In this document: positions 8,410-48,962 of the stretch, piece by piece
Layout: the number at the start of each line of letters is the position of its first letter
Position numbering within the stretch: the first letter of the stretch is position 1
From: Candidatus Hermodarchaeota archaeon
GTDB taxonomy: Archaea; Asgardarchaeota; Heimdallarchaeia; Hodarchaeales; Hodarchaeaceae
NCBI GenBank assembly: GCA_048886185.1
Contig: JBHLKY010000001.1
Location: forward strand, 130,436-194,435
Length of the DNA stretch: 64,000 nucleotides
Direction: 5' to 3'
The notes under the pieces: model-generated
The model's database searches: none
The model's input: only the letters and a program-made list of their open reading frames with translations
What the model was told of the DNA's origin: nothing
Made by a program: the position numbers and the translations under genes

Positions 8410-8440
8410 TCCCCTCATAAAATTTTTAGAAATAAGATTA
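8398..8440 (+). terminator. hairpin (AGGGG-TTTAAT-CCCCT) followed by a T-run
   Basis: The inverted repeat is visible in the sequence immediately after the 8409 stop, followed by 'aaaattttt'. Confidence 0.3.
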
Positions 8441-8612
8441 TTAGAGGTGAAAGTGATATTTCTCGTTCTTAGTATTGATGAAGAAAAATGTTCATGGAAT
8501 TATATGAATGGAAATTATTTCCAAATTGTGAACTGTAATTATCTTTATAAGTTAAAGTTCCCAAATATGGTATATTTTTCTGTCCTAAGTTTTTACTCTC
8601 TTCAATCATTGA

Positions 8613-21190: not shown

Positions 21191-22699
21191 ATGAAATCCT
21201 CATTCAATAATAAAATGGATCTCAATGATGAAACCAAGGCATTTTTTAACTTTATTACGCATCCAACTAAATTAGAATCATTAATCATGTTAGAACAGCT
21301 TATTAAAGACACTAAGGATGAAAATCTAAGATGTTTCTGGAAAATACTTTCAGATAAAAATCTAGAATGTTTTAGACTTACATGTAAAGAAAATAATACA
21401 TCTAAGGAAGTATATTATATTGATCTTGAAACTCCGATATTATTTTATCCTGTATTCCAGAATCACATCTCTTTAAATATTGCCTCGAATTTTTTTTCTC
21501 TAGCGAGTAAAATTAAGTCAAATTTATTGAATTTCTATAGTCAAGAAGTCGAAAGTTCTTTTATTTTAATAAAAAAAGGTACAACTGAAAAATTGGTTGA
21601 TTCTTATACTTTTAAAGTAGAAGATCAGGATATCAAATTGTTACAAAGGTCTAATCTTTATAGATCTAGGAGAAAAGAAATATCCCAAAAGAATTTAGAC
21701 AATTTTCTTAAGAATAACGAGTCTATGTTAAATAATAGATTAAAAAAAGACGAAGGGGTTTATGCTTCGCTTGGAGATCATTTGTTATTTAAATCAGATA
21801 GTTTAAATCTTCAAAATGGCAAAAAGCGCTTTCCTGTTGGTCAACGAAACCCCAAAAATCGCTTGAATCTGTTAACGGGGAGAGAATGGATAAAATTTTC
21901 TAAAACATGGTTTATTCATCGTCCTCCATCACGAAAAGATGAAGAATTTTTACATCCTGCTAAATTCCCTGAGACACTTATTAGAAAGTTTATCACCTTT
22001 TTTACAAAACCAGGTGAATTAGTGCTAGATCCATTTCTTGGTACTGGAAGCGCGCTCATCGCTGCTAAACAGAGCAACAGGAGTGGAGTGGGAATTGAAC
22101 TCTCTCCTACTTACGCTAAAATTTCTAAAAACCGTTTAAAAGGAATAAATTCTCTATTATATCCCCCTTTATACCAAACTGATGAATCATGCTTTTGGAA
22201 GGTTATTTGTGGAGATTCTAGGAATTTAAATGACTACTGGGAGGATTTTAATTTACCAACTGTTGATTTTTGTATCACGAGCCCTCCTTATTGGAATCAG
22301 CTCCAACGAAATACTATTCGACAAAGGAAACGAAAACATGAGGGCTTAGATACACAATATAGTTATGATGATCCAAAGGATTTAGGGAACATTGATAATT
22401 ATAACAACTTCCTAAGTGAACAACAGAAAATATTTGGTAATGTTTACGAAATTCTACGACCTAATGGATACTTAGTCATAATCACAAATCATGTTTTTAC
22501 AGATGGACAGGTTTATCCCTTAGCTTATGACACAGTATCTAGTTTAATTAATGATAAAAAACATAATTGGATACAAAAAGATGAAAAAATATGGTTACAA
22601 GATGATAAGTCCTTGGTGGCATTAGGGGTAAATTATGCTTGGGTTGGAAATAGGTGCCACCAGTATTGTCTTATTCTAAGAAAAGAAGTATCAAACTAG
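21191..22699 (+). CDS. DNA methyltransferase (N4-C/N6-A, SPPY type) with a 240-aa N-terminal domain of unknown function
   Basis: 'HPAKFPETLIRKFITFFTKPGELVLDPFLGTGSALIAA' (AdoMet motif I region) precedes 'ITSPPYWN' (motif IV) by about 80 aa. This is a permuted order relative to beta-class enzymes. No adjacent nuclease gene. Confidence 0.7.
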   Translation: MKSSFNNKMDLNDETKAFFNFITHPTKLESLIMLEQLIKDTKDENLRCFWKILSDKNLECFRLTCKENNTSKEVYYIDLETPILFYPVFQNHISLNIASNFFSLASKIKSNLLNFYSQEVESSFILIKKGTTEKLVDSYTFKVEDQDIKLLQRSNLYRSRRKEISQKNLDNFLKNNESMLNNRLKKDEGVYASLGDHLLFKSDSLNLQNGKKRFPVGQRNPKNRLNLLTGREWIKFSKTWFIHRPPSRKDEEFLHPAKFPETLIRKFITFFTKPGELVLDPFLGTGSALIAAKQSNRSGVGIELSPTYAKISKNRLKGINSLLYPPLYQTDESCFWKVICGDSRNLNDYWEDFNLPTVDFCITSPPYWNQLQRNTIRQRKRKHEGLDTQYSYDDPKDLGNIDNYNNFLSEQQKIFGNVYEILRPNGYLVIITNHVFTDGQVYPLAYDTVSSLINDKKHNWIQKDEKIWLQDDKSLVALGVNYAWVGNRCHQYCLILRKEVSN

Positions 22700-23647: not shown

Positions 23648-25777
23648 TTATCCTTCATTCCTTTTCTTTATTGGTGTTTCAATTAGTGATAACATTTCTC
23701 TTAACAACTCAGTAATTTCATCATGAGCTCCAATAATAAACTTCATACTACCCACTAATTCGTGCCCTCCCCCTTCTATTCCTGCTTTAGGGAGCTTTTT
23801 TGAACAATTTGAAACCAATTTGGGGAAATCTAATTGTACATTTTGAGAGCGGAAAATAGCAAAATCAGGGCCTAAGCCTATAGTTACAAGAGGAGATTCT
23901 AGATCTTTTTTTGCTAGATGATCGAAAAGAGAACCTGTTATTTTTCCTGGAGGTGGGTAATCGAATCTACTAGCATATTTCTCGACATCTAATATTGCTA
24001 AATGAATTCCATTCACTAACTTCTCTTCTTGAACATATTCTAGAGATATTTGTAACTGATTTTCAAGATGTTTACGAGCCTCATTTGATAAAAGCCTAAC
24101 ATAATTAATTTGTTTCTCCTGTTTTCCCTGTAGCCCTAAAAGATCGCTTAGGAGAAGACGTCCTGGTGAGAATTTTAAAAAATAGGCTTGGTAATCAACT
24201 GCTACAGCAATATCTTCTAGAAAATTCTCTGAATAATCCTTTTCTATAGCAATTGTTAAGTATTGGTTTAATTCGTCCCCTGATACACGATCACCTTTTC
24301 CTGCGATAGCTGGGAGATGGCTTATAGTGTCAGTGATATTAGGTTCAATTTGTCTGGCTAATTCACAACCTAACATTCCAGTACATATATTATAGTCGCC
24401 ACCAACAAAATAAACATTTAGATGAGTATCAATAGTATTTTGAATAATACTTGAGGGAAAATGATGATCAATGACTATAATTTCTATTTCATATGATTTT
24501 AGTAAATTGTATGAGAATAAACTTTCCTCACTGCTTCCTGAATCTAAAATTACAATCAAAGGTATTTTATCACCGAATCTATCCTGATCTGATAGCGCGA
24601 AATCAAGATCTCTAATTGCATCAATGGGATCATAAAAAGGAGGTTTATTAGGCGTTCTCTTAACTAGGTGCCTTAATTTTTCCTCATCTGTATCAAATAG
24701 TTGAAACCAAAGTTCTCGACATGCTGTCTCTAATGCAATTCCTGCAACAATTCCATCACAATCATTATGATGTCTAATTATCACGGGTTGTAATTCTAGT
24801 AATGCTCGGCGAATTCTTTTTGCTATACTAACAAATTTTTCTTGTAATAAGTCCAGTGTTTCAGATTTTATCATAAAATCGACTTTCGGGGGTTCACTTC
24901 GCGATTCAAGTAGATTTTCCATCTTTTGAGTAAATAAATTGGCATAAGTCTCATCAACGATGAAAATATCGGAAATCTCAATTTGTTCTGAATCTCTGTG
25001 ATGTGTGTATTCTCCCATAACTTCAACGATGTCTCCAACTTTGATTTCCTCCGCAAACTCAAGATGAAATGCTGCAGCTTCTATCACACCTGTTTCATCT
25101 AAGAGGGTAAGAATTTTCGGCCCCCGAGGAATTTGATGAATGTTCTCAATCCTTGCGTGAATTGAGAAAAAAGTCCCAACTTCACGGTCTGTATTGATTT
25201 TCTGAAAAGGAACAACGTCATGGACACGTTTCCTTAAAATTTTGGAAGTATCTCTAATAGGTACCTCCAGAAATTCTAGCTTCTCACCTTTCTTATTTTT
25301 AAGTTTAACAAATAAGGGATCCCCTTTATTTCCCTCAAACTGTTTATTTCTAATTAATCCCTCTACTTTTGGTGTCAGTTGAACAAAAAATCCAAAATCA
25401 GTATTTTTAACCATTGTGGCAGAGTAAACTTTCTTAAATTCTACTGTAGCTGATGAAGCAGGGGGAATCAACTCAAAAATAACTGGATTTTTTTCACACA
25501 TCTCACATAGCTGTATTCCAGCTGGTATATTTTTCTCACAAACAATACACTGATTTTTCTTTGTTCCTGTTCCTTTACATACAGGACAGGTCTTTTCAAT
25601 CGATTTTAATATCTGACCTGATCCTGAACAATCGGAACAGGCATTCTTCTTTGATGGTTTAGAACCTACTATAATTTTTGTTGAACCCATTCCATGACAG
25701 GTTGGGCATTTAATCTTGCGTTCACTAGAGATTTTTCCCGTTCCAGAACATTTGGGGCACTTTGAAAGTGAAGACAT
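23648..25777 (-). CDS. RecJ-like DHH/DHHA1 phosphoesterase with N-terminal DnaJ-type zinc finger and OB folds
   Basis: Four perfect CxxCxGxG repeats (CPKCSGTG, CPTCHGMG, CSDCSGSG, CPVCKGTG) plus an extra CxxC...CxxC ribbon; two OB/S1-like segments; DHH motifs 'HHNDCDGIVAG' and 'IVIDHHFP'; DHHA1 'GGGHELVG'. Confidence 0.65.
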   Translation of the reverse strand: MSSLSKCPKCSGTGKISSERKIKCPTCHGMGSTKIIVGSKPSKKNACSDCSGSGQILKSIEKTCPVCKGTGTKKNQCIVCEKNIPAGIQLCEMCEKNPVIFELIPPASSATVEFKKVYSATMVKNTDFGFFVQLTPKVEGLIRNKQFEGNKGDPLFVKLKNKKGEKLEFLEVPIRDTSKILRKRVHDVVPFQKINTDREVGTFFSIHARIENIHQIPRGPKILTLLDETGVIEAAAFHLEFAEEIKVGDIVEVMGEYTHHRDSEQIEISDIFIVDETYANLFTQKMENLLESRSEPPKVDFMIKSETLDLLQEKFVSIAKRIRRALLELQPVIIRHHNDCDGIVAGIALETACRELWFQLFDTDEEKLRHLVKRTPNKPPFYDPIDAIRDLDFALSDQDRFGDKIPLIVILDSGSSEESLFSYNLLKSYEIEIIVIDHHFPSSIIQNTIDTHLNVYFVGGDYNICTGMLGCELARQIEPNITDTISHLPAIAGKGDRVSGDELNQYLTIAIEKDYSENFLEDIAVAVDYQAYFLKFSPGRLLLSDLLGLQGKQEKQINYVRLLSNEARKHLENQLQISLEYVQEEKLVNGIHLAILDVEKYASRFDYPPPGKITGSLFDHLAKKDLESPLVTIGLGPDFAIFRSQNVQLDFPKLVSNCSKKLPKAGIEGGGHELVGSMKFIIGAHDEITELLREMLSLIETPIKKRNEG

Positions 25778-28943: not shown

Positions 28944-29813
28944 CTAAATATAATGTTTTGCCATAATTAATTCTTGTTCAGTAAACTTGAATCCCCATCG
29001 TTTATACATTTCATTATGAAAATTACTTTTAGCAAAAGTCGTCAATAAAACTTTCTGAACTTGTTGTTTCTTGAACCACTGAAAAGCCTTAACGGTGAGA
29101 CTGGTTGCGATGTGTTGTTTTCGATATTCTGGAAGAGTAGCAATTCGCGCATAATGTCCCTCGATCCCATTCGCAGAAATAGAGTTTGAATTGTATCCTA
29201 TTAGTTTATCATTCAAAAGGGCTATAAATAGGGAATTTGTTTTTGATTCGATTTCTTCTCTAAACTCCTCTCTAGTTTTTCTCCAATAATCTGAAAAGCA
29301 GATCTTCTCCAACTTAACAAGAGCTCTGAGGTCATTTTTTGTAGCTGACTTGATTTTTACATTAGGATTTGGCTGATATGGAAAAAAAAGATCACTTTTT
29401 TCATAACAATTAATTTTGGTTATAATGTGGAACCTGTGTTTAATGAAAAAATCTTTTGTATTGAAAAATTTCTCGGGAATTCGTACAGAGAGATATCGCA
29501 GATTAGGTTGCCTTGTAAGAAACTCTTTCTCTAATAATTGTATAAGATCACTACCAATTTGACGTCGTTGAAAGCTTGGGAGAACATAAAGAGAAAAAAT
29601 TCTTGCTTTATGTGAACTGTTTTGGTCTCCTATTATATAGCCAATAATTTTTGAGAATTGCACTGCTATTTTAACAAGATGGGAATTGAACATGATATAT
29701 CTACGAAAGTTGGAATGTTCAACAGGATTATCAAAATCTCCAAATATCTGGATATACAATTCTTCAAAGGATTTGAGATATGTTTCATTAAGGGAATGAA
29801 GTTTTATATCCAT
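28944..29813 (-). CDS. tandem GNAT acetyltransferase (two GNAT domains)
   Basis: Two motif-A-like segments, 'QRRQIGSDLIQLLEKEF' and 'YRKQHIATSLTVKAFQWF'. Confidence 0.5.
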   Translation of the reverse strand: MDIKLHSLNETYLKSFEELYIQIFGDFDNPVEHSNFRRYIMFNSHLVKIAVQFSKIIGYIIGDQNSSHKARIFSLYVLPSFQRRQIGSDLIQLLEKEFLTRQPNLRYLSVRIPEKFFNTKDFFIKHRFHIITKINCYEKSDLFFPYQPNPNVKIKSATKNDLRALVKLEKICFSDYWRKTREEFREEIESKTNSLFIALLNDKLIGYNSNSISANGIEGHYARIATLPEYRKQHIATSLTVKAFQWFKKQQVQKVLLTTFAKSNFHNEMYKRWGFKFTEQELIMAKHYI

Positions 29814-29986: not shown

Positions 29987-32287
29987 TTGAGAGATTCAAA
30001 GTGCTATACTGAAGAGGAAATTTTAGCAGCTTTAACAAATGCTGTTGATGAGGTTGAAGTCTACACTAGGAAAATTGGCTTTGAAAAGTTTGAACAACCC
30101 CTTGGGTTCTTTTTTGCTCGGGTTTTGGATAATAAAATTACTCGATCTGAGAAAAGAGGAAAAGAACTTAAAACAGCAATTATAAGAGGTGCTGCGTTCA
30201 TTGTAGTAATTCAAATTCTGATATATACTGTGTTATTAAAAGAGGATTCTAAAAGCAGTTTAATTAATACAATACATGATTCTAAACATCTACAATCTTA
30301 TTTTGATGAAATTGAAAACGAAAAGAATTTTGGAGCTATCTTTAATGCTAGGATTGTTGAATTACTTCCTAAAGAATCAGCTGTGACTCTAAATCACGTT
30401 TTTCAATCATTTATCTCTTTTAATAAGTCGCAGTTCACTTCTGATATTCTTGGGAAAATTTTCCATGGATTAATCCCCTTTGAGCTGAGGAAATTTCTTG
30501 CTGCATATTATACCTCAAACGTTGTTGGAGGATTTCTATCATATTTAGCAATAAAAAACGACCAAGTTAAAATCATGGATCCAGCTTGTGGTTCTGGGAC
30601 TCTATTAGTGAGCGCTTATAAGCGAATCATAGAGATCAATAGAAATCTGGATCATAATCAAATTTTACGGAATATCTATGGAGTTGATGTTTCAGCATTT
30701 GCAGCTCAGCTTGCTGCAATTAATCTTGCGATTCAAAAACCTACTGATTCCTGGAACACTTGTAATATTGCCATTCTTGACTTTTTTAGATTAGAAATCG
30801 GAGATAAGGTAGTAGGTTTTAAAGTCCCCAAATTTGATGTTTTTATTGGAAATCCCCCATTTACTCGTGGTGATCGATTAGATAGTGAGTATAAGGACTT
30901 CTTACAAAATCATCTTCTTCATAAAGGAATTTCCTTTGATTATAATAAAAAATATTTGGGTTTATATGCATATTTTCTTCTAGATTCTTTAAGATTCTTG
31001 AAAGCGGAAGGAATCCTTGCTTTTATTCTTCCTCTTTCATTAATTAACTCTTTCACAATGAAACCTGTTCTGAAGTTTTTGATGTCAAAATTTCTCTTTA
31101 TTTACATTATTACATCAGAAGCTCAAATTACTTTTTCAGAGCAGTGCTCATTTAAAGAGATTCTCTTGATTGCCCAAAAAGGGAGAAAGAAGAGTTTTGG
31201 AACTAAATTCGTCACATTAAAAAAGGAATTAACAGATACTAATTATCGAAAAATAGCTGAAACAATAGAAAAGACTACGAAAAATTATGAAGACACAAAT
31301 ATACGAATTAGAACTATTTCAACAAAGACTCTGAAAGAAACTCTAAAAATGAACTGGATTGTATATTTTTACAATAGTAAATTCATCACCATTTTTGATC
31401 AGATAAGACGGTCCGATACGATTTCTCTAGTAAACGAAATAGTTGAAAATCCTCGGTATGATGTGGATCGGGGACTCCGTGCTGGAATTTCTGATTTCTT
31501 TTATCTCCCCAATAAATTCTGGAAAATTGTTGATACATCGAATAATGGGATTAAAATAAAGAATATTAGAGACAGTTCTATTCTAAATCTGTCTTCTAAA
31601 TATCTTGCACCTGTGTTAAGAAAATCTTCTCACTGTAGATGTGTTATTCCAGAATCTTCTGACTATATTGTCGTAATTCCTGATAAAAATGAAAAGGAAA
31701 AAGATGTTGATAATTATATCAAGTGGGCTGTTCAGAAGTTCCAAAAAACAGGATTTGAATCACTAACATTCAGGCATATCAGTCAAAAACGCAAAATTGC
31801 TAGAGTAGCAATCACTCATAAGCTTAGTCTTATAAGTAGTAAGATTATCACTTATTACTCCCCAAAGCCCATTGTTTTAACTGATAATTTTATCTTCATT
31901 AGAACTTTTAATAAAGAGAACGACAAAATTCTAGCTGCTTACTTGAATAGCTCAATATTTCTCTTAACTTATCTTATTCTACGTCGAGAGAAAAGTGGTG
32001 CTCTTGGCCAAATATTTGGTACTGATGTGAGGAATTTCTTTTGTTTGGATCCCCGAAAGGTGAGTTATTCTGACCGATTAGAGCTTATTAAGTTATTTGA
32101 TCATTTTATTAAGGAATCAAGCTTTTTTCCCTCTTTTCGTGAACAGATTAACAAAGCGAAAGAGGAGAGGGATAACATTAGATTTCTACTGGATGAAAAG
32201 ATCTGTGAGACACTTGGAATCAAAGATATTCCACTGTTCTTGAAACAACTTTATGAAACATTAATTGAGGAATTGAAGAAGTTTTAA
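29987..32287 (+). CDS. gamma-class N6-adenine DNA methyltransferase (Eco57I/TaqI-like), TTG start
   Basis: 'LAAYYTSNVVGGFL', motif I 'MDPACGSGTLLVSA', motif IV 'FIGNPPFTRGD', and a roughly 450-aa C-terminal target-recognition region. The first in-frame ATG lies inside motif I, so the start must be non-ATG. Confidence 0.75.
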   Translation: MRDSKCYTEEEILAALTNAVDEVEVYTRKIGFEKFEQPLGFFFARVLDNKITRSEKRGKELKTAIIRGAAFIVVIQILIYTVLLKEDSKSSLINTIHDSKHLQSYFDEIENEKNFGAIFNARIVELLPKESAVTLNHVFQSFISFNKSQFTSDILGKIFHGLIPFELRKFLAAYYTSNVVGGFLSYLAIKNDQVKIMDPACGSGTLLVSAYKRIIEINRNLDHNQILRNIYGVDVSAFAAQLAAINLAIQKPTDSWNTCNIAILDFFRLEIGDKVVGFKVPKFDVFIGNPPFTRGDRLDSEYKDFLQNHLLHKGISFDYNKKYLGLYAYFLLDSLRFLKAEGILAFILPLSLINSFTMKPVLKFLMSKFLFIYIITSEAQITFSEQCSFKEILLIAQKGRKKSFGTKFVTLKKELTDTNYRKIAETIEKTTKNYEDTNIRIRTISTKTLKETLKMNWIVYFYNSKFITIFDQIRRSDTISLVNEIVENPRYDVDRGLRAGISDFFYLPNKFWKIVDTSNNGIKIKNIRDSSILNLSSKYLAPVLRKSSHCRCVIPESSDYIVVIPDKNEKEKDVDNYIKWAVQKFQKTGFESLTFRHISQKRKIARVAITHKLSLISSKIITYYSPKPIVLTDNFIFIRTFNKENDKILAAYLNSSIFLLTYLILRREKSGALGQIFGTDVRNFFCLDPRKVSYSDRLELIKLFDHFIKESSFFPSFREQINKAKEERDNIRFLLDEKICETLGIKDIPLFLKQLYETLIEELKKF

Positions 32288-32322
32288 TGATTATTTTCGA
32301 TCCAAACTAGGATGGACTCTGA

Positions 32323-34443
32323 GTGACAATAGAAGAAAGGTTTCCCATTACTATTATTCAACAACTGGCAAAAATAGAGTCTCAGCGACGGCAATTTTAC
32401 CGACCGATATATTCTATCCATAAATCCTGGGCCAGAAGACCAGGGACAACAATACGTGCAATAGGTCTTTCTCATTTCTATCAAGATACTCTCTTTAATT
32501 CTAATCATATAGAAGAAGGAGGATTTTACCAAAATCATTATTTCCAAGGGAAAATTGCTCTCGATCCCTTCTGTGGTGGAGGAACGAGTATAGTTGAGCT
32601 TCATCGTCTTGGAATAAAAACAATTGGGATTGATGTAAATCCAATAGCTTGGTTCACTACAAAAAAGGAATTGGATTCATTTAATGAAGCCACTTTTAAC
32701 CAAGAAGTTAAAAAAATCTTTCAAAGCGTTGGCCAACGAATTAAATCTTATTATAAAACAATATGTCCAAGCTGTCACTATTCTGATGCTGATATTATGT
32801 ATATATTTTGGGTAAGAACCATTCAATGTCCTTCGTGCAACTCCGAGGAAGATCTATTCAAGTATTATATTATTGGTAAGAAGCAACGGAAACATAAAGC
32901 AACAATGGTGATATGTCCTTCTTGTGATCATTTATTTTATACATGGAAGAAGGTTAAAGAAATATCATCTTGTCCAGAATGTCAACATGAGTTTATTCCG
33001 ATACAAGGGAATTGTCGCTTGAAAAAATTCACCTGTACTCATTGTCAGAAAGAATCTAGACTTGTTGAGATACTCCAACAACCTACAAATTCTTTTTCTG
33101 CAAGACAAATAGCAATAGAATTCTTTTGTCCCGAATGTCGAACACGTGATTATAAACCAGTAAATAAAGAAGATAGAAATCTTTTTACACAAGTACAAGA
33201 AGAATTCATGATAAAAAAGGATGAACTCTTATATCCACATGAATTATTACCAATTGAAGGGGATAATATATCAAACCTTAGAAATTATGGTTTTCAACGA
33301 TTTTCAGATCTGTTCAATGAAAGACAGCTACTAAGTTTGAGTCTCCTCATACAAGCAATATCAAAAGTTGCAGATCAGAATATTAGAGAATTTCTCTTGT
33401 CTGCATTTTCTAGTTGTTTAGAATTTCATACTGTAATCTGTCCTTATAATTATACAATGAAACAGATTGTAAATGTGTTTAACTATCAATCTTTTCTTGT
33501 ACCAACCATGTATGTAGAAAATAATGTTTGGGGGACGAAAAAAGGGAATGGAACTTTCATTACTTACCTCGAGAGGATAAAAAAAGCCAAAAAATATTGC
33601 AGATCACCTTTTGAAATAGCTTTTCAGAATAACCAGATTATACGAATCTCTGTACCAGGAGATAATATCGAAGCCAAGTCCGTTAAGACCTTTCAGGAAC
33701 TTCAAGCAAGTTCTAGAGCTGAAACTTTACTTATTAATGATTCCTCTGAAAACCTTCAGAGATTGGGTATTCCTAAGGCTTCTGTCGACATAATAGTGAC
33801 TGATCCTCCTTATTTTGACTATATTCAGTACTCTGAATTGGCTAATTTTTTCTATGTCTGGTTGAGAATAGTTTTGAGACCTTTATACTCAGAATTTCAT
33901 TCTAATTTAATCAATACTGAATATGAAATTGGTAGATTAAAACAAGAGAACCATTTCCTTGAGGGAATAACTAAAGTATTTCAAGAATGTTATAGGGTTT
34001 TAAAGCCAGAAGGTCCGATGATTTTTACATTTCATCATTCTAGTGAAACAGCATGGGCAATGATATTAGAGGCTTTAGCCAAAAGCCAATTCCTAATAAC
34101 TGCTACATTTCCTGTTCGAAGTGAATTTGGTGCTCGTCCTGTTAAAGGACAAAACTTTGATTTTATCATTATATGCAGAAAATATTCAAAAGTAAACCTC
34201 GCCATGAATCATATAAGTCGAACAGTATTAGAGTCAGAGATAAAAAGAAGTTTAGATGATTTTTCAGTTGTTTCTCCTCGAGAACCTGATCTTACTCCGT
34301 GGGGGGTTGCATTTGCGTCTATTCTCCCTATGATATCAAAATTCTCTACATTAAATCAATCTGTAGATATTGAAGAAATCATATTACACACCTTTACCCT
34401 CCTCAAAAACCTTAAAATTCAATATAATTCTAAAACACCTTAA
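32323..34443 (+). CDS. adenine-specific DNA methyltransferase with internal multi-CxxC zinc-ribbon module (COG1743/DUF1156-like)
   Basis: N-terminal 'YRPIYSIHKSWARRPG', motif I 'LDPFCGGGTSIVELHRLG', six CxxC pairs (CPSC..CPSC, CPSC..CPEC, CTHC..CPEC), motif IV 'IVTDPPYFDYIQYSELANFFYVWLR', and 'FTFHH'. Confidence 0.7.
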   Translation: MTIEERFPITIIQQLAKIESQRRQFYRPIYSIHKSWARRPGTTIRAIGLSHFYQDTLFNSNHIEEGGFYQNHYFQGKIALDPFCGGGTSIVELHRLGIKTIGIDVNPIAWFTTKKELDSFNEATFNQEVKKIFQSVGQRIKSYYKTICPSCHYSDADIMYIFWVRTIQCPSCNSEEDLFKYYIIGKKQRKHKATMVICPSCDHLFYTWKKVKEISSCPECQHEFIPIQGNCRLKKFTCTHCQKESRLVEILQQPTNSFSARQIAIEFFCPECRTRDYKPVNKEDRNLFTQVQEEFMIKKDELLYPHELLPIEGDNISNLRNYGFQRFSDLFNERQLLSLSLLIQAISKVADQNIREFLLSAFSSCLEFHTVICPYNYTMKQIVNVFNYQSFLVPTMYVENNVWGTKKGNGTFITYLERIKKAKKYCRSPFEIAFQNNQIIRISVPGDNIEAKSVKTFQELQASSRAETLLINDSSENLQRLGIPKASVDIIVTDPPYFDYIQYSELANFFYVWLRIVLRPLYSEFHSNLINTEYEIGRLKQENHFLEGITKVFQECYRVLKPEGPMIFTFHHSSETAWAMILEALAKSQFLITATFPVRSEFGARPVKGQNFDFIIICRKYSKVNLAMNHISRTVLESEIKRSLDDFSVVSPREPDLTPWGVAFASILPMISKFSTLNQSVDIEEIILHTFTLLKNLKIQYNSKTP

Positions 34444-34501
34444 TAATCCTAATGACAAGTTTTTAAACAAAACAAACAATTTACAAATAGAAGTGAGCTT
34501 G

Positions 34502-35155
34502 ATGACTGGAGAATACTTTGGGCAATTATTAAAGGATAAGGACATTCATAAAAAAGGAACAGAGTTATTTGTTAAGCTTGTTGAATCACTAGAAGAAGCT
34601 TATGATAAATTCGAAAAAGCATTGAAAGCATGGCGAGGAGGTGACTTTGAACGAGGTTTCATGTTACGTGATGAGGTAATTCAACTGGAGAGAGATGCAG
34701 ACAAAGTAAAGGATATTTTTTTTGAAACAATTTTCAAAAAAAAGGCATATCTCCCTCAGATAACAGAGGAGCGTTATAACATGATGTTGAATGCTGATCG
34801 CTTATTGGATCGGATCGAAAGAGCAGTTAGAATCGTTTGTGTGAAAAAAATTGATGCTAGTTATTTCCCTCCAGAACTCGATCGGATAATAGATTTAACT
34901 GAAGATGTTATTGAAGATTTCGTAGAAGCCAATAAACTATTTTTCAGTGACTTTGAAAAGGCATCAAAGCTCGCACGTAAGGTAGAGGAGAAGAGGGATG
35001 AAGTACGTGATCTTTTTTACATTATTTCAGAAAAAATAGTTAATGACGAACTCCCACGAGGTACAAGTAGAATACTAGATGCTACTACTCGTATTAGCGT
35101 CGAAGCAGAGCAAGGTTCAGATTATTTAAAAGTTCTTATAGCTAAACATAGTTAA
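34502..35155 (+). CDS. DUF47 / PhoU-like phosphate transport regulator
   Basis: A helical protein, 'VIQLERDADKVKD...' and '...VEEKRDEVRDLF', classically paired with PiT. The ORF-track start at 34370 overlaps the upstream gene and is not used. Confidence 0.6.
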   Translation: MTGEYFGQLLKDKDIHKKGTELFVKLVESLEEAYDKFEKALKAWRGGDFERGFMLRDEVIQLERDADKVKDIFFETIFKKKAYLPQITEERYNMMLNADRLLDRIERAVRIVCVKKIDASYFPPELDRIIDLTEDVIEDFVEANKLFFSDFEKASKLARKVEEKRDEVRDLFYIISEKIVNDELPRGTSRILDATTRISVEAEQGSDYLKVLIAKHS

Positions 35156-35175
35156 TCGATAGAAGGTGTAATACC

Positions 35176-36219
35176 TTGACCGCACTGATTATTATAGGTG
35201 CCGCTCTTCTTCTTGGTTTCGTTGTCGCATTCACCATTGGAGCCAACGATGAAACAATGACTCCAGCAGTAGGTGCTGGTTTACTCTCGTTGAATATTGC
35301 TGTCCTAATTGGTGGTCTATTTAATTTCATTGGTGTATTCTTTCTAGGAGAATCTGTTTCCAAGACTGTTGGTAATAAATTCACTACTCCCAATTATAGT
35401 CTTTCTCTAACAATGGTGTTTGTAGTACTTCTCTCAATGGCACTTTGGCTATTCATCGTATCCTTGAAAGGAGTTCCTATCAGTACAACACAATCTGTTG
35501 TTGGGAGCGTTATAGGGGTTACCATCCTTGAATGGGGATTAATAGCTTTAAATTATGATACTCTCTTTTGGGTTCTACTCAGTTGGGTTGTCAGTCCTCT
35601 TATCGGGCTTGCTGGAGGTTATGCTTTTTACTCATTAATCATGAAAATCCGACAATCAGTTAAAACACAGGGTTACGCAGATTATGAGAGACAAGAAAAG
35701 ATAGCTTTTTATGCTTTGGCTGTTTTTTTACTCATTTCAGTATTTTCTCGAAGTGGAAATGATGTTGCTAAAGCTATTGGTCCCCTAATGGCGATTGAAG
35801 ATTTTGTAGTGGAATTATATATGATCGGACCAGTTCCTATTAGTGGACTATACTTAGCACTAATCGCAGGTGGTTCAGGAATGTGCCTAGGGGTAATTAT
35901 CCTTGGGCGAAGAGTTGTAAAGAAACTAGCCAGCGATATTGTAGCTTTATCTCCTACATCTGCGTTAGCGGCCAGTATTTCTGTCAGTTTAATCATGTTC
36001 TTTGGTACATTATTAGCAATTCCATTATCGGGATCTCATATTTTAGTTGCAGCCTTTATTGGAGTTGGTTTCGTAAATAAAGAGAAAGTGGATAAAGAAA
36101 ATCTCAAAGAAATTGGAATAAGTTGGTTAATTACAACACCTATATCTGCGATCTTTTCTGCTATAATTTATGTGGTCTTCAACTTACTAGGGGAATTTTT
36201 TGTTGCACTTTATGGATAA
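35176..36219 (+). CDS. PiT-family inorganic phosphate (or sulfate) permease
   Basis: Two-fold repeat with 'GANDETMTPAVGAG' and 'SGNDVAKAIGPL' (GxNDxxNxxGP-like). TTG start preceded by 'aggtg'. Confidence 0.6.
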   Translation: MTALIIIGAALLLGFVVAFTIGANDETMTPAVGAGLLSLNIAVLIGGLFNFIGVFFLGESVSKTVGNKFTTPNYSLSLTMVFVVLLSMALWLFIVSLKGVPISTTQSVVGSVIGVTILEWGLIALNYDTLFWVLLSWVVSPLIGLAGGYAFYSLIMKIRQSVKTQGYADYERQEKIAFYALAVFLLISVFSRSGNDVAKAIGPLMAIEDFVVELYMIGPVPISGLYLALIAGGSGMCLGVIILGRRVVKKLASDIVALSPTSALAASISVSLIMFFGTLLAIPLSGSHILVAAFIGVGFVNKEKVDKENLKEIGISWLITTPISAIFSAIIYVVFNLLGEFFVALYG

Positions 36220-36244
36220 TTATACCTCTTGATGGAATAAACAT

Positions 36245-38422
36245 ATGAAACAGAAGATTCAAAGATCAGAAAAAGTAATCGAGAATTATTTTCCATTCTC
36301 AAAGGTCAATGAAATTGCCTACAGAGAGAGTAATGCGAAGAGGTACTATCGTCCTGTTCTAACTCTGCATAAGTGGTTTGCTCGCCGATTAGGTTCTGTT
36401 TTTAGATCTATTCTCATCTATTCTTCACTTTCCTCAGTAAAAAACGATGTTAAAGCTGTCAATGCTTCGTACGAAGACAATATCCTGGCATTGGAACATG
36501 ATTTTTGGAATCTGTATTTACAAGAACATAATTTTGAAGATATTATTGTTATAGATCCTTTTATGGGAGGGGGGACAACAATTATTGAAGCCATTCGTTT
36601 AGGCTTTGGTGGGATTATAGGTGGTGATTTGAATCCTGTCGCTTGGTTTGCAGTAAAAAAAGAGCTAGAAGAAGTTAATATTAATAGTTTAAAGGTAGAA
36701 TTTGAGAAATTATCATCCAAACTTAAACATGAGCTTTCTATATATTATAAAACACAATGTGGTCATTGTTCGAATCATGCGGATGTAATGTACTTTTTCT
36801 GGGTAAAAGAGATTCAATGTGAGCATTGTTCAACAACTACTCCCCTTTTCCGAAGTTATTTGTTTGCTTATGATCGTAAGGATCCTTCATCAGGTCATTT
36901 TATTTGTCCTAAATGTCAAACCATTTTTCACGGAATTTTTAAAGAGGATCTTTACTGTCCTGAATGTAGCTGGATCTTTGATCCATTTTCTTTTGTTGTT
37001 AAACGCGGAAAAATTTTTTGTCCCAGCTGTGAACATACAGCTAAAATTGTAGATGTTTGTGCAAAACAGGGAAAGTCCCAGGAAAGATTATATGCTATAG
37101 AATATTATTGTTCTTATTGTAATACACGTGATTACAAAAGAGCTGATATAAATGACCTTGACCTCTATCAACAAGCATCTCATGAATTTAAGATGATTCA
37201 GAAGTTATTACCACTTCCTAACCAAGCTATCCCTATGGGAGCTAAAACCCAGGAATTATTAAATCATCAAATTCTCTTTTTTACCGATATGTTCAATATG
37301 CGTCAACTACTTTCTTTAGGAAAATTATTGAGGGAAATTCTGGAAATTCAAGATCAAAATATAAAGGAATTCTTTCTTATAACATTTTCAACAGCTTTGG
37401 AATATAATAATCTTCTGTGTGAATATCATAGAAAGAACCATTACATCTACAATTTATTTCGAAAACATGCCTTTCCTGCCACATTGAACCCTGTTGAAAA
37501 TAATGTATTTGGTACAGCAAAATTCGGTACAGGAACTTTCAAAAACTTCTTTTCGAAGACCATTCGAATTAAACAATTTTGTAGGAATCCGTACGAATAC
37601 TATATTACTGAGGAAGGGAATACTAACCGCCAATCTATGAAACGTTCAATTAAAGGGAGAGTAGTGTCTTCATATTCCAAGCTCATGCAAGATCCTACAG
37701 AAAATATTTATCTCTATTGCCATTCTTCTGACCAAATTCAGGTTCCAGATAATAGTGTGAACTTAGTAGTAACAGATCCTCCCTATTACGATAATGTTCA
37801 GTATTCTGAGTTATCAGATTTTTATTACGTTTGGTTGAGATTAGGACTTAAGGATCATTATCCCTGGTTTAGTTCAACATTAACTCCCAAAAAAGAAGAG
37901 ATTGTAAAAAATATAAAAATTGGAAAAAAAAGTAGTGATTATCAACAGGGCTTAAAAGAAGTATTTTCAGAGATTTCCAGAGTCTTGAAAACTGATGGTT
38001 TGTTAATATTTTCATTTCATCACAAAGAATTACAGGCTTGGACTTCAATAATACAGAGTTTATTGGATATTAATTTCTACATCACAGCAGTTTATCCTGT
38101 GCGTGGTGAAATGGAGACCAGTACACAGATTCGAGGTAAAAAAAGTATTGAATTTGACGTCATCTTTGTCTGCAAGAAACGTTTGGGATATTCTCACAAA
38201 AACATGTGGGAAAGACTTCTTCCTAAGATTAAGAAGAGTATAAAGGACAAAATAACCCTTCTGAGTAATACTGGTGACTTTCTTTCAAAGGAAGATCAAT
38301 TTGTAGTTCAACTTGGTGTTGGATTAAAGTATTTCACAAAATACTATCCTAATATTACCTTTAATTCAAAATCTTTGGCTTTAAAGGAAGCTTTAGAAAA
38401 TCTCGCATCGCTCACTTATTGA
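36245..38422 (+). CDS. paralog of 32323-34443: Zn-ribbon adenine-specific DNA methyltransferase (COG1743/DUF1156-like)
   Basis: Colinear with 32323-34443: 'YRPVLTLHKWFARRLG', 'IDPFMGGGTTIIEAIRLG', six CxxC pairs, 'VVTDPPYYDNVQYSELSDFYYVWLR', 'FSFHH'. Confidence 0.7.
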   Translation: MKQKIQRSEKVIENYFPFSKVNEIAYRESNAKRYYRPVLTLHKWFARRLGSVFRSILIYSSLSSVKNDVKAVNASYEDNILALEHDFWNLYLQEHNFEDIIVIDPFMGGGTTIIEAIRLGFGGIIGGDLNPVAWFAVKKELEEVNINSLKVEFEKLSSKLKHELSIYYKTQCGHCSNHADVMYFFWVKEIQCEHCSTTTPLFRSYLFAYDRKDPSSGHFICPKCQTIFHGIFKEDLYCPECSWIFDPFSFVVKRGKIFCPSCEHTAKIVDVCAKQGKSQERLYAIEYYCSYCNTRDYKRADINDLDLYQQASHEFKMIQKLLPLPNQAIPMGAKTQELLNHQILFFTDMFNMRQLLSLGKLLREILEIQDQNIKEFFLITFSTALEYNNLLCEYHRKNHYIYNLFRKHAFPATLNPVENNVFGTAKFGTGTFKNFFSKTIRIKQFCRNPYEYYITEEGNTNRQSMKRSIKGRVVSSYSKLMQDPTENIYLYCHSSDQIQVPDNSVNLVVTDPPYYDNVQYSELSDFYYVWLRLGLKDHYPWFSSTLTPKKEEIVKNIKIGKKSSDYQQGLKEVFSEISRVLKTDGLLIFSFHHKELQAWTSIIQSLLDINFYITAVYPVRGEMETSTQIRGKKSIEFDVIFVCKKRLGYSHKNMWERLLPKIKKSIKDKITLLSNTGDFLSKEDQFVVQLGVGLKYFTKYYPNITFNSKSLALKEALENLASLTY

Positions 38423-39253
38423 TTAGGACTCTTCTTTTGTTATGTTATTACTTTTGTTATAAATCCAGCGAGTTAAATACATATAAGGAGTATCGATTAG
38501 TCCTAGAGTCCATTTCGTTATTAGCTGTCCTATAATTAGAGTAAAAACAAATTCGACTGTTTCTACTTTAATTGAAGTATCAAATAACCTCTGAACAGAA
38601 GGTAAAATCAAAAAAGCTAATGGGATAAAAATGATCGAATCTAAACCTAAACTTAAAATGTCACTAAAAACATTTCTTATCCATAGATACTTCCACCATT
38701 CCTTCTCTAACTCAGATCTTGCATGAATCCAAGATCGAATCATGTCATAAATCCAAGCGTCAAATCGTTCACTGATGAGAAAGCTAATCCATGAAGCCAG
38801 GGTGATAGCAGGAACAATTGCAAATGGTGTCAAGGGATCAGTCTCTTTTCCACCTGCAGCAGGGAGTAAACCAGCAAGTATCAATAAAAATACCATAATT
38901 ACCTGACTAATGAGAGCAATCCAGATCATTTCGTAGACAGTCTTTCTTCCAAATTTTTCATTTACCATATCAGTAACCTGCAGAGTAAAAGGGAAAACAA
39001 TTACTCCCACTGGAGCAAAAATTGGAAGAACACCTAAATTTAACAATAAATCCCCAATAAATGGTAGGTTTTCAAACCCTAAATCAAACATAGCGATTTT
39101 TGCGGCAAAAAATTGAGCCAAGGTTAGAAAGAGTATGTAAATTCCTATTAATGCCCTAGGAGAGTTTGATTTTGCTGTATACCAAGCACCAAAATACGTA
39201 ACAACCCCTAATATAATGAATACTCCAAAGCTTACTATTATTCCTTCATACAT
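38423..39253 (-). CDS. YhhQ/VUT-family (DUF165) membrane transporter, putative queuosine-precursor transporter
   Basis: 'FPFTLQVTDMVNEKFGRKTVYEMIW' and overall TM topology resemble COG1738. Confidence 0.4.
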   Translation of the reverse strand: MYEGIIVSFGVFIILGVVTYFGAWYTAKSNSPRALIGIYILFLTLAQFFAAKIAMFDLGFENLPFIGDLLLNLGVLPIFAPVGVIVFPFTLQVTDMVNEKFGRKTVYEMIWIALISQVIMVFLLILAGLLPAAGGKETDPLTPFAIVPAITLASWISFLISERFDAWIYDMIRSWIHARSELEKEWWKYLWIRNVFSDILSLGLDSIIFIPLAFLILPSVQRLFDTSIKVETVEFVFTLIIGQLITKWTLGLIDTPYMYLTRWIYNKSNNITKEES

Positions 39254-39797
39254 GCCTCATTAATCTCCACAGTAATCCAAGAGGGAAGTACGTTATGGTT
39301 TTTTCTTTCTACTCTTTAAGATTTACATAGAAATACAAGAAAAAAAAGGGAGGAAATCTAAGTTTATATCACTAATTAACTCGTAGTTTCAATGTTTTGT
39401 CATCTATATTAATTTTCGAAAGAATTCCTCCTCTAGATCTGAATGATTTAGCCAAAGATGTGAGAACTGGTAGATTTTCCTTTAGATTATGTTTTTCCTT
39501 TAATATTTAGTCTTTGATTGTTCTTTCAACACGTAAAAAGTGTATAAACTCATTTTGGTTAATACAAATAATAAATATCGCAAGTATAAACAGAAAAACA
39601 ATTATTTTGCTTTCATCTTTCCCACTCCGACCTTTTTTCTACACATCAAAAATTATTCATTTTTGTAATTAAGAGAAAAATAAATGAAATAGTCAGTAAA
39701 GGTCTTTTTCATTTAAAATATTTTACAATTATGTGACAAAGCGTAAGAAAAATGAAAATCGATTTGTCTGAGAGATTTTTCAAGGTGTGACCAAAGT

Positions 39798-40532
39798 TTG
39801 ATCTTTGAAGTATACACACCGCTAAAGGAACATTATACTAAGCTTGATCCTCATGCAGAAACATGGGATCTTTGGATCAAAGGTAATAAAAGTTCTTTAG
39901 AGGTTTATGAGGTTGCTATTGGAACAATTTTGGTTCAAAATACAAATTGGAGTAATGTAAATAAGGCTATAGAGAATTTAAAGAATACAGATATTACTTC
40001 TTTCAAAAAACTACAAAAAATACCACTTGAAACGCTAGAAGAGCTGATTAAACCTGCTGGTTTCTATACACAAAAAGCCTCCTATCTTAAATCCTTAAGT
40101 AATCTCTTCTTAATCCATAGTGATACCAATACATCTCCTTCTCGTGGTGAATTATTAAAATGTAAAGGTATAGGAAAGGAAACAGCTGATTCAATTTTGG
40201 TGTATTGCTTTCAACAACCTATTCCTATTATTGGGACATATACTCGCCGTTTCCTAGCTCGAATACAAGGAAATGCAGATTTTCTAAGAATAAAGTATGA
40301 GAATCTTCAAAAAGTATTAATTGAAGAGCTTAAGGAAGATTCTGAGATATTAGGACGATTTCATGCTTTGGTAGTGGTTCATGGCCAGAATTATTGTCAA
40401 AAAAACAATCCTCTGTGTCCAGAGTGTTTTCTCCTTGATTTATGTACCTATGGGCAGAAACATGAAACAGACTCTAATATAGCTCAAATTCAAAAACAAA
40501 TAACCAAATCTTTGAAGCGAAAAAAGAAATGA
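39798..40532 (+). CDS. HhH-GPD base-excision DNA glycosylase, endonuclease III family with [4Fe-4S] loop
   Basis: HhH 'LLKCKGIGKETADSIL' and C-terminal C-x6-C-x2-C-x5-C ('CQKNNPLCPECFLLDLC'). Confidence 0.65.
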   Translation: MIFEVYTPLKEHYTKLDPHAETWDLWIKGNKSSLEVYEVAIGTILVQNTNWSNVNKAIENLKNTDITSFKKLQKIPLETLEELIKPAGFYTQKASYLKSLSNLFLIHSDTNTSPSRGELLKCKGIGKETADSILVYCFQQPIPIIGTYTRRFLARIQGNADFLRIKYENLQKVLIEELKEDSEILGRFHALVVVHGQNYCQKNNPLCPECFLLDLCTYGQKHETDSNIAQIQKQITKSLKRKKK

Positions 40533-47009: not shown

Positions 47010-48962
47010 CTAATGATGATTAAAGTACTTGTGGTGAGTTTCTAATTGTTTGATTACTTCTTTTTTAAATAAATCAGGTAATCTATAAAGCTCAAAAATT
47101 AAATCATCTAATGAACAACATAATTCTGATATTTTTCCTTTCTCAGTACAGAATGGACATAATTGTAAGAAAATCTCTTTAGAAGATGAAAACTGCTCAA
47201 GTGACTTGCTAAGGGAAGATACTTCTTCTTCGATTGAAGTGCAAATATCATTTTTCAAAGGATTAAGTCGAGGTAGGGGTATCAACCCTATATCTGCTGG
47301 CGGAACAGCTGCTGTTAGGTTAATCTGATGGATAAACCAGTTTATTAGAAGAGAGTTAAAAATTCCTAATAATAAATTAGTAGAAACATATATTGAAGTC
47401 GAATTACAATCTAAAAGAAAATAATTCAAGTTATTTTCGACCCAAATTCTGTTGTGAGTTTTAAGGTGGTCTTCCGAGATCAAACCAGAAACAACTCTAC
47501 GTAATTGTTCTCTAGCAGTAATTCGTTGGAACACAATTCGGGGAGTATTGGCGTGCTTTTTTCGAAAGATAGTGTTATCCATTGATGATGGTTGTAAGTA
47601 CCAACGAGGCTTATGGCGATTTTCTGATAGATTGATTATAAAAGGATGGACATTCTTCCCATTTAATACAATCTCGAAATTTGAAATGTTATCTTTTTCA
47701 AGAATCTTTTTATAGTAAAAAGGTCGGATTTTGCTATCAGCAGGTCTTATTTCTCCGCTTTGAATTTTGTATACATCTTTTAAACAGATAGAATTCTTTC
47801 TAATAAGCCTAATTATTTCAAATGTTTTAGGGTATGGTGAAGGAATAATTTTATCCTGAAAAAGTAGAAGGGGGGTTGAAATGTCACCTTCAGTAATTTC
47901 ACCTAGGACTAATTCTTCTATATTACAGGTTCGTATTATATGAGTTTGCTCTTTTTCTTCACCCCCTTTCTTCTTCTGTAAAACTAATAAGCAGGTTCCT
48001 TGAAGAACATTAGGAAAGATATGAGTTCGACTTACAAAATCAACCACTTCGCGTAAATGGAATTGCGAGAGAAGGAATTTACGAACCTCTACACTATAAT
48101 AATCAGTCAATACTGAATTTGAAGTTAAGAAAGTTGCGATTCCATCTGAAGTCAAAAGCTCATTCACACGGGTTAAAAAAAGGTGATAAAGATTAAATCG
48201 ATTAATAAATATCTGTTTTTGGTATAATTGGCGATAAATTTGGTTATCTTTTGATGAAATATCTTTTGTTACATAGGGTGGATTACATAAAACGAGATTA
48301 AAACCTTTATTTTCATGATTAAAAATTCTTGGAAATTCCTTATACCAATGAAAAAATTGATTTTCGTTAATACTTAATTCTTCTTTCTGGAGTAATTCAA
48401 GAAATCTTTTTTGATCTTCAGGTTTAGTACTTCCAAGTAAGACATTACCATGCCTAATCTGGTGATTTAAAGTGTTCTGCACTTCTTTGAGCTTATTTTG
48501 AGTTAAATTGGATTCATTTTGTCCTAATAACCATTTTTTTAGCTCCTTTTGGCAAGTATGAATTGCTTTAGGATTAAAATCTACTCCATGTAAATTGTTC
48601 TGGATTATCTGAAATCTAACATCTGTTGAATCTGAGGAATTACAATGAATTGCTTCTAGAAATTTACCTGCTTCTAAAAGAAAAACTCCATTTCCAACTC
48701 CAAGATCGAGAATTTTGATATCCTTTATTAGCTCTTGCATTTGTAGGCGTGTTGAATAATTAATGGTATCTTTAGGAATTTTTGATGCTGTTACCTGTGA
48801 TAAGAATTTCAATAATAATTTTTTAGGTAATCGTTGGTGAAAAAATTGTTGGAATGCCGACCAGACCACAAATTGAGCTAGTATGGTTGGTGTGTAATAG
48901 GTACCAAGCGATTCTTTCTTATTTGAGGATTTCACTTGTAACACCTGGTGAGACCCGTTCAT
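47010..48962 (-). CDS. gamma-class N6-adenine DNA methyltransferase
   Basis: 'LGTYYTPTILAQFVV', motif I 'ILDLGVGNGVFLLEAGKF', motif IV 'LVLCNPPYVTKD', then a roughly 330-aa C-terminal region with a 'CPFCTEKGKISELCC' ribbon. Confidence 0.75.
   Translation of the reverse strand: MNGSHQVLQVKSSNKKESLGTYYTPTILAQFVVWSAFQQFFHQRLPKKLLLKFLSQVTASKIPKDTINYSTRLQMQELIKDIKILDLGVGNGVFLLEAGKFLEAIHCNSSDSTDVRFQIIQNNLHGVDFNPKAIHTCQKELKKWLLGQNESNLTQNKLKEVQNTLNHQIRHGNVLLGSTKPEDQKRFLELLQKEELSINENQFFHWYKEFPRIFNHENKGFNLVLCNPPYVTKDISSKDNQIYRQLYQKQIFINRFNLYHLFLTRVNELLTSDGIATFLTSNSVLTDYYSVEVRKFLLSQFHLREVVDFVSRTHIFPNVLQGTCLLVLQKKKGGEEKEQTHIIRTCNIEELVLGEITEGDISTPLLLFQDKIIPSPYPKTFEIIRLIRKNSICLKDVYKIQSGEIRPADSKIRPFYYKKILEKDNISNFEIVLNGKNVHPFIINLSENRHKPRWYLQPSSMDNTIFRKKHANTPRIVFQRITAREQLRRVVSGLISEDHLKTHNRIWVENNLNYFLLDCNSTSIYVSTNLLLGIFNSLLINWFIHQINLTAAVPPADIGLIPLPRLNPLKNDICTSIEEEVSSLSKSLEQFSSSKEIFLQLCPFCTEKGKISELCCSLDDLIFELYRLPDLFKKEVIKQLETHHKYFNHH

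Follow-up and report, generated by a model that had tools for sequence, protein, structure and literature searches.

A conserved pair of short-form DUF1156-type methyltransferases, probable persistent orphans, at a fixed chromosomal locus in Hodarchaeales

In the genome of a Candidatus Hermodarchaeota archaeon of the order Hodarchaeales, we analysed a window of 64 kb (contig JBHLKY010000001.1, positions 130,436 to 194,435; coordinates below are those of the window), within which five genes at 29987-38422, all on the + strand and separated by 35, 58, 20 and 25 bp, include three for large methyltransferases (MTases). The first gene (29987-32287; Pfam, PADLOC) encodes an Eco57I/MmeI-like γ-class N6-adenine MTase of 766 aa. 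It is followed by a gene for a short-form DUF1156-type amino-MTase of 706 aa, which we call a (32323-34443; PADLOC, NCBIfam), and by a second such gene, b, of 725 aa (36245-38422; PADLOC, NCBIfam, Pfam), the pair that is the subject of this report. Between a and b lie genes for a PhoU_div (DUF47) protein of 217 aa, the accessory partner of PiT (34502-35155; Pfam PhoU_div, 1e-10), whose start is that of the NCBI record, the longest open reading frame (ORF) beginning at 34370, and for a PiT/PHO4-family inorganic phosphate (or sulfate) transporter of 347 aa (35176-36219; Pfam PHO4, 8e-59). A sequence-only reading of this DNA had placed three large MTase genes here on one strand, with a phosphate-uptake pair between two paralogs; the ORFs lie at exactly the positions it gave and the Pfam matches bear out the pair, but the window as a whole contains seven MTase genes.

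Both a and b are Zn-ribbon MTases of the COG1743/DUF1156 type, as had been proposed. The top PADLOC model for both is HmaB (a, 5e-36; b, 7e-37), and the top NCBIfam model is DUF1156_antiphage (NF042963), matched by a at 4.5e-29 (101 bits) and by b at 1e-37 (130 bits), below the cutoff of 1000 bits. Pfam N6_N4_Mtase is weakly matched by a (5e-14) and b (4e-12), while Pfam DUF1156 is matched by b at a sub-threshold level (3e-4, 21.3 bits versus 24) and not by a; the N-terminal residues I12, P17, A25, E28, K43, A46, R48 and R54 do not vary among 74 members of the family, long forms among them. The two proteins share 35% identity over 652 aa (E = 4e-134), and each contains DPFxGGGT near its N-terminus, then exactly six CxxC pairs, then TDPPY. 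In a, these are motif I for S-adenosylmethionine (AdoMet) binding (DPFCGGGT, 32563-32586; invariant in the family alignment), a triple Zn-ribbon with the six pairs (residues 149-272, 32767-33138), presumed to be a target-recognition insert, and motif IV (DPPY, 33802-33813); in b, they are DPFMGGGT (36554-36577), residues 172-292 (36758-37120) and DPPY (37775-37786). DPFxGGGT and TDPPY are found in nearly every sampled family member, and motifs I and IV do not vary among any of the a and b orthologues. In the alignment of 74 sequences, 11 of the 12 Zn-ribbon cysteines of b are invariant, the exception being the second cysteine of the last pair. Since the six pairs are kept across both the long and the short classes of DUF1156 protein, the six-CxxC insert is a hallmark of the family; it is present in both enzymes, as had been read, but it is not unusual.

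An AlphaFold2 model of b made from the 74-sequence alignment (predicted local distance difference test score 89.5, predicted TM-score 0.90) comprises, in order, N-terminal helices, a Rossmann segment with motif I, an all-β region (approximately residues 169-299) containing the six CxxC pairs, a helical module (approximately 302-447), the DPPY half and C-terminal helices (655-721), these last forming one small domain within the approximately 75 residues beyond the catalytic domain. In structure, the catalytic core is most like the tRNA N2-methylguanine (m2G) MTases Trm14, Trm11 and TrmN, a resemblance also reported for HmaB (PMC11232893). A Foldseek search of the PDB with the model yielded generic Rossmann matches only (TM approximately 0.12) and no solved homologue of the recognition module, and a PDB sequence search with b yielded only spurious Zn-finger matches (USP15) and marginal N4C-MTase matches. 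The predicted fold of a and b is a helical segment that probably corresponds to DUF1156, a Trm11/Trm14-like Rossmann domain split after motif I by an insert, the DPPY half and a small C-terminal helical domain, with the insert (a triple Zn-ribbon, then a helical module) as the presumed target-recognition domain (TRD). Pairwise identity among orthologues is 56% for b and 64% for a over the Zn-ribbon, 75% and 69% over the helical insert and 71% and 60% over the catalytic half, compared with 36-42% between a and b across these three segments. That is, the recognition module is conserved about as much as the catalytic half. From this conservation within a and within b, it is reasonable to infer two distinct and stable specificities, and not the turnover of TRDs that accompanies an arms race.

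We collected 77 loci of the family by scanning one genome per GTDB species with two peptide patterns derived from an alignment of b orthologues, a sample whose frequencies are no census. The proteins fall into a long class of 835-1015 aa (mostly 870-950 aa), with 330-405 aa past DPPY, and a short class of approximately 680-790 aa, with 200-275 aa past DPPY; the sole systematic difference between the classes is a C-terminal extension of approximately 150 aa in the long forms. With a profile iterated from a Pfam-confirmed DUF499 seed (L056:12835-16071), DUF499 was found in 29 of 37 long-form loci and in none of 41 short-form loci (Fisher p = 1.8e-14). The eight long-form loci without DUF499 are mostly short of flank on one side, and 17 of the 19 whose flanks reach 5 kb or more on each side carry it; no Hodarchaeales locus matched the profile. 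Immediately upstream of the short form, by contrast, nine bacterial loci contain a restriction endonuclease (REase) of the EcoO109I family and four loci, from Chloroflexota, Fimbriimonadales and Micrarchaeota, one of the HaeII family (Pfam, 6e-103; L063; L064, 2858-3979; L077, 3550-4626; L078, 810-1916). The REase-linked short forms (Chloroflexota, Bacillota, Deltaproteobacteria, Micrarchaeota) have the same short architecture as a and b, at 720-790 aa, whereas the Hodarchaeales genes have no adjacent REase and stand in a conserved housekeeping neighbourhood; the short forms of Thorarchaeota likewise have housekeeping neighbours only. Judged from their sequences and contexts, short-form DUF1156 proteins are autonomous type-II-like MTases, some paired in restriction-modification (R-M) systems and some orphan. 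The sequence-only reading had set COG1743 kinship against ordinary type II MTases: the kinship is confirmed, but a and b are short-form and type-II-like, and no such form in our sample of loci is linked to DUF499. In one locus (L040), the EcoO109I-like REase upstream of the short form is split between two ORFs (8326-8682 and 9621-9992) approximately 940 bp apart, which may represent a decaying REase and an R-M pair becoming an orphan.

Visualizing the relatedness of the family as a rough neighbour-joining tree, we observed that the a clade and the b clade are each monophyletic and are not sisters. The a clade joins the HaeII-linked short clade, whereas b is placed close to the Thorarchaeota short clade and to a DUF499-linked long clade; b shares 40-45% identity with long proteins of bacteria and haloarchaea and 35% with a. 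As far as these comparisons go, a and b come from different DUF1156 clades and not from a duplication within the Hodarchaeales lineage. The duplication suggested earlier is therefore set aside, although the two specificities read from it remain likely, given the conservation described above. In haloarchaeal loci of the BREX-related/Hma type, two long DUF1156 MTases flank DUF499 (L056, 9965-18744; L061, L066, L069, L051, L071), a layout that we did not find mentioned in the BREX-related/Hma literature searched. We considered this arrangement as an ancestor of the a-x-b layout and rejected it, because the same tree places the two haloarchaeal copies as sisters within haloarchaea, so that the arrangements are independent. 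Nor did we find, in the searchable literature, any account of the short/long split of DUF1156, of the REase-linked short forms or of the Hodarchaeales a/b pair.

The a/b pair occupies a fixed position in the chromosome. A gene for a double-GNAT acetyltransferase (28944-29813, - strand; Pfam) is the divergent upstream neighbour of the locus, and a gene for a Vut_1/YhhQ-type queuosine-precursor transporter (38423-39253, - strand; Pfam Vut_1, 2e-33; NCBIfam TIGR00697) lies tail-to-tail with b at a gap of 0 bp; these two genes are markers of the chromosomal backbone, and Vut_1 is outside the functional module. Synteny was assessed by tblastn of the window proteins against the 77 loci and by three look-ups of orthologue contigs, with each relative represented by approximately 20 kb and at most 10 kb of flank per side. 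The gene order recurs in approximately 10 other Hodarchaeales/Heimdall genomes, represented by loci L006-L011, L059 and L083-L085, and the order a, PhoU, PiT, b in at least six. Three loci (L006, L083, L084) present GNAT (-), the Eco57I-like gene, a, PhoU_div, PiT, b and Vut_1 (-); L083 is from a complete 4.94-Mb chromosome (CP070695.1), in which collinearity runs from Metallophos to tRNA_edit and beyond, over approximately 20 kb. The order is kept from the Eco57I-like gene to Vut_1 in L008 and L009, in which a GNAT homologue was undetected and the Eco57I-like gene is 28-29% identical to that of the window, and from GNAT through PhoU in L059, where an 8-kb insertion precedes PiT. Hodarchaeota YT2_065 (L010) has GNAT, a, a thymidine-kinase-like ORF, b and Vut_1, with no Eco57I-like gene; this ORF (9333-9962), whose GPMKSGKS motif reads as that of a thymidine kinase, fills the a/b slot, and PhoU and PiT are absent from the sampled part of the contig. 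In Hodarchaeum mangrovi (L085) the slot is empty, a being immediately upstream of b. PiT is 71-76% identical among the syntenic loci, and Vut_1 adjoins b in every sampled orthologous locus that extends past the end of b.

The identity of b across these loci (52-71%) correlates with that of Vut_1 (r = 0.94), and a and b likewise vary together in identity (r = 0.98). There are approximately 42 orthologue clusters of b at 51-73% identity and approximately 50 of a at 52-70%, all named ones being metagenome-assembled genomes of Hodarchaeales/Heimdall type, and 21 pairs of an a and a b cluster agree in the length of their longest contig, which suggests that each pair lies on one contig. Given the syntenic loci and the co-varying identities, we conclude that the pair is an old chromosomal locus that has been vertically kept. 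The term "island" used in the sequence-only reading is thus not appropriate to this collinear, vertically inherited segment, in which the identities of a and b track that of Vut_1. The GC content of the locus, 0.32-0.365, is the same as in the rest of the window, and a scan of the window found no tRNA gene, hence no integration-site signal. A viral origin was rejected, as relatives in IMG/VR are only 27-36% identical. So was a locus common to Thorarchaeota and Hodarchaeales: the Thorarchaeota short forms have a GNAT gene upstream and Metallophos nearby, but no orthology to the window proteins was detectable. An HhH-GPD glycosylase gene, which together with Vut_1 occupies 38423-40532, is also a conserved neighbour of b in every Hodarchaeales locus. 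This neighbourhood is probably a matter of synteny only, yet a base-excision enzyme beside persistent MTases may merit attention.

The 766-aa Eco57I-like protein matches Pfam N6_Mtase (7e-16), Eco57I (1e-13) and MmeI_Mtase (5e-10), and its best PADLOC match is MTase_II (2e-27). It contains DPACGSG as motif I and NPPF as motif IV, the γ-class signature typical of enzymes that make N6-methyladenine (m6A), and has its own C-terminal TRD. It resembles the type IIG/IIL enzymes Eco57I, MmeI and BpuSI, as well as BREX PglX, in its γ-class N6-adenine core, NPPF and C-terminal TRD. Type IIG enzymes, however, have a PD-(D/E)XK nuclease N-terminal to the MTase-TRD part, and no nuclease domain was found in the 766-aa protein, where type IIG profiles cover the MTase part only; similarly, no BREX genes lie near this gene, and the PglX/BrxX matches among PDB sequences span only residues 187-250. 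Its orthologues are 62%, 54%, 45% and 28% identical, and it is absent in L010 (the contig of L085 ends before its position). The Eco57I-like gene is accordingly the variable member of the locus, with a faster turnover than a and b. A 334-aa gene in the gap between GNAT and the Eco57I-like gene of L084 was considered as a candidate REase and rejected, as its HxHxQ-type motif reads as that of a GalT/HIT-family transferase and it is found only in L084.

COG1743/DUF1156 MTases have been described as the modification subunit of an operon with DUF499 and an SNF2-nuclease (PMC7641849), which has been named Hma (PMC11232893) and was recently reclassified among the DUF499-centred BREX-related (BR) systems, where BREX stands for bacteriophage exclusion (bioRxiv 10.1101/2025.10.09.681413). 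Like HmaB and the BR-MTases, to which they are homologous over almost their whole length (b at 40-45% identity), a and b have the same order of motif I, Zn-ribbon/helical insert and DPPY, with six cysteine pairs, and a probable counterpart of the N-terminal DUF1156 segment. They differ in being approximately 150 aa shorter at the C-terminus than these proteins of approximately 900 aa, whose C-terminal region has been described as three helix-turn-helix-like domains (bioRxiv 10.1101/2025.10.09.681413), in scoring 101-130 bits against the NCBIfam cutoff, in lacking a nearby DUF499 ATPase or SNF2 helicase-nuclease, and in being chromosomally fixed instead of located in variable defence islands. 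The missing ATPase and helicase partners had already been remarked upon from the sequence, and the wider search agrees. A Pfam sweep of window ORFs of at least 120 aa other than five small ones (125-203 aa), with PADLOC on selected ORFs, found no helicase, DUF499 or recognisable nuclease; the iterated DUF499 profile matched no window ORF of at least 80 aa; and relaxed tblastn with EcoO109I-like and HaeII-like REases against the window and the Hodarchaeales loci gave a best E of 0.6. At the orthologous loci of approximately 10 other genomes, no DUF499 or SNF2 helicase-nuclease partner was found within the flanks of up to 10 kb per side.

Because no cognate nuclease was found with them, and because their position, motifs and recognition modules are kept across the order, we hypothesize that a and b act as persistent orphan MTases: they are probably type-II-like amino-MTases of DNA, each with a conserved specificity of its own, next to an Eco57I-like m6A MTase that is more labile. 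Such orphans are known from archaea already, and the locus is not a new kind of system. A survey of archaeal R-M systems based on REBASE defines "persistent" MTases, among them a Halobacteria-wide CTAG MTase and groups of GATC and AGCT orphans, and lists 11 type II MTases and no REases for the single Asgard genome that it covers (PMC10609329). Of the two possibilities that the sequence-only reading had entertained, an orphan module or a novel MTase-only arrangement, the orphan and MTase-only character is retained and the novelty is not. Methylomes of other Asgard lineages obtained by PacBio sequencing contain 5-13 motifs per genome, with both N4-methylcytosine (m4C) and m6A (PMC11529989). As with the CTAG, GATC and AGCT orphans and the bacterial Dam and CcrM, a and b are free of REases, fixed in locus, order- or class-wide in occurrence, and conserved in their recognition module, and they belong to an MTase-rich, REase-poor genomic setting. 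They differ from the Dam-, CcrM- and β-class orphans in belonging to another family, as DUF1156 short forms with a Zn-ribbon TRD, and from known orphans in occurring as a conserved pair of distant paralogs.

In the mechanism that we propose, each enzyme would bind AdoMet, read a DNA motif of its own with its particular Zn-ribbon/helical insert, flip the target base and methylate its exocyclic amino group, giving m6A or possibly m4C, so that a and b would mark the host genome at two fixed motifs. We take DNA to be the substrate because the genomic contexts of the family are R-M-like, the bacterial short forms adjoining EcoO109I and HaeII REases. The DPPY motif suggests that the base made is m6A. 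For a, the HaeII linkage of its nearest clade hints at m4C as a possible alternative. The HaeII site, RGCGCY, has no invariant A; if REases of the HaeII family cut this sequence, the DPPY MTases paired with them must make m4C and not m6A. The marks may serve a housekeeping or epigenetic role, or may provide standing protection against the restriction enzymes of invading elements. The Eco57I-like gene would supply a third m6A MTase, with its own recognition domain and faster turnover, while PhoU_div-PiT would be an ordinary phosphate-uptake pair, a passenger in a permissive a/b slot that is possibly co-transcribed and has no evident functional link to the MTases.

Several points weigh against this interpretation. 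Halomonas HmaB, the one family member tested, showed no detectable RM-like protection phenotype (PMC11232893), and sequence is a poor guide to type II REases (PMC10609329). The DNA inspected amounts to 64 kb here and approximately 20 kb per relative, so that a partner in trans is conceivable. The locus frequencies come from the two-pattern sample, and the tree is a rough neighbour-joining one without support values. An unlikely alternative is that a and b supply the modification part of R-M or BREX-related defence systems whose restriction, ATPase or helicase components lie elsewhere in the genome or among unannotated ORFs. DUF499/SNF2-nuclease operons are the otherwise known context of the family (PMC7641849; bioRxiv 10.1101/2025.10.09.681413), bacterial short forms are paired with type II REases, and several window ORFs have no Pfam match, in a class of enzymes that is notoriously difficult to detect (PMC10609329). 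Yet the search for such partners came out empty over approximately 26 kb on either side here as well as in the syntenic genomes, partners in other DUF1156 loci are always immediately adjacent, a and b lack the C-terminal extension whose presence goes with linkage to DUF499, and conservation of position across an order is atypical for defence genes. The loss of that extension and of the DUF499 and helicase partners relative to the long forms, together with NCBIfam scores far under the family cutoff, could also mean that what remains of an earlier BREX-related (Hma) system is decaying here, with a and b heading to pseudogenisation. We regard this as the least probable reading of all, and it is essentially refuted by the pattern of conservation: the ORFs are full-length, the catalytic and Zn-binding residues are invariant in dozens of orthologues at 51-73% identity, the model fold is confident and compact, and short forms occur widely, in R-M contexts in which they look functional.

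Core-gene-like conservation would also be explained if a and b had been exapted as tRNA or rRNA MTases, e.g. as writers of m2G or m6A. The resemblance of the catalytic core to Trm14, Trm11 and TrmN, weak UPF0020/RsmD-like Pfam matches and the housekeeping surroundings, which include the queuosine-precursor transporter and a tRNA_edit gene, speak for RNA; however, restriction enzymes that act on DNA directly accompany close short-form relatives, the long forms belong to defence systems aimed at DNA, the tRNA-related neighbours belong to other transcription units, and neither the Pfam scan nor the model of b revealed a THUMP, PUA or other RNA-binding domain. Unlike Trm11, Trm14 and TrmN, a and b lack THUMP, have a Zn-ribbon/helical insert of 340 aa and come from a family with DNA R-M-like contexts, and we judge an RNA substrate to be slightly less likely again than hidden defence partners. 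Quite improbable, in our estimation, is a coupling of the MTases to phosphate uptake, whether by methylation-dependent regulation of pit or by phosphate-responsive MTases through co-transcription with PhoU_div-PiT. Five same-strand genes with gaps of 20-58 bp, and the recurrence of the a, PhoU, PiT, b order in at least six other genomes, would fit such a coupling, but the slot is taken by the thymidine-kinase-like ORF in L010, whose sampled contig has no PhoU or PiT, and is empty in L085, and PhoU_div-PiT is a self-contained and widespread pair for which no linking regulatory domain was found. More speculatively, and with a modest weight that still exceeds that of each of these alternatives, a defence-derived DUF1156 pair might have been domesticated as an order-wide, essential-like epigenetic system, with Dam/CcrM-like marking of the chromosome at two fixed motifs for replication, repair or gene control, in which the two enzymes perhaps cooperate, or exapted to methylate RNA.

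The other four MTase genes among the seven in the window, which has no recognisable REase, were recovered in the window sweep. They encode an N6_N4 MTase of 502 aa (21191-22699, + strand), an Eco57I-like MTase of 650 aa (47010-48962, - strand) and two adjacent N6_N4 MTases (48978-49778 and 49768-50688, both - strand). Close paralogy of the Eco57I-like genes at 29987 and 47010 was ruled out, as their common segment is only 28% identical over 87 aa around motif IV. Candidatus Hodarchaeum mangrovi (JAEOUE010000134.1; L081, 8471-15000) contains a third short-form DUF1156 type, of 708 aa, in an MTase cluster in which it is flanked by homologues of the window MTases at 21191, 48978 and 47010; clustering of MTases seems to be recurrent in Hodarchaeales. 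The other genes of the window are of housekeeping type (FGGY kinase, HAD, SDR, ABC transporters, UvrA, acyl-CoA synthetase, HhH-GPD glycosylase and geranylgeranyl reductase), and adjacent unknown ORFs resemble, on reading their sequences, a DinB-like protein and a membrane protein. At 8613-14433 (+ strand), an apparent operon encodes a C-type lectin/BNR-repeat protein (438 aa) and, after it, proteins of 1108 and 394 aa that have no Pfam or PADLOC match. A 1532-aa protein (55598-60196, + strand) has only a marginal match to DUF4785, and a 709-aa protein (23648-25777, - strand), a RecJ-like nuclease/phosphoesterase with an unusual N-terminus, has an OB fold and a DHH domain together with a zinc finger of the DnaJ type (CxxCxGxG). 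A scan for σ70-type promoters and terminators, whose model excludes archaeal promoters, gave 40 sites versus 38.8 expected.

Hodarchaeales are usually placed closest to eukaryotes among archaea, and if our interpretation is correct, a and b would be a clean example of defence-type MTases turned into fixed chromosomal genes in this order. For the family, the split between a long, DUF499-dependent form (BREX-related/Hma) and a short, autonomous form (type II R-M or orphan) would be useful for annotation: defence-finders such as PADLOC rank HmaB first for a and b, which should not be counted as Hma. We therefore nominate a and b as enzymes whose motifs are to be sought in Asgard methylomes.

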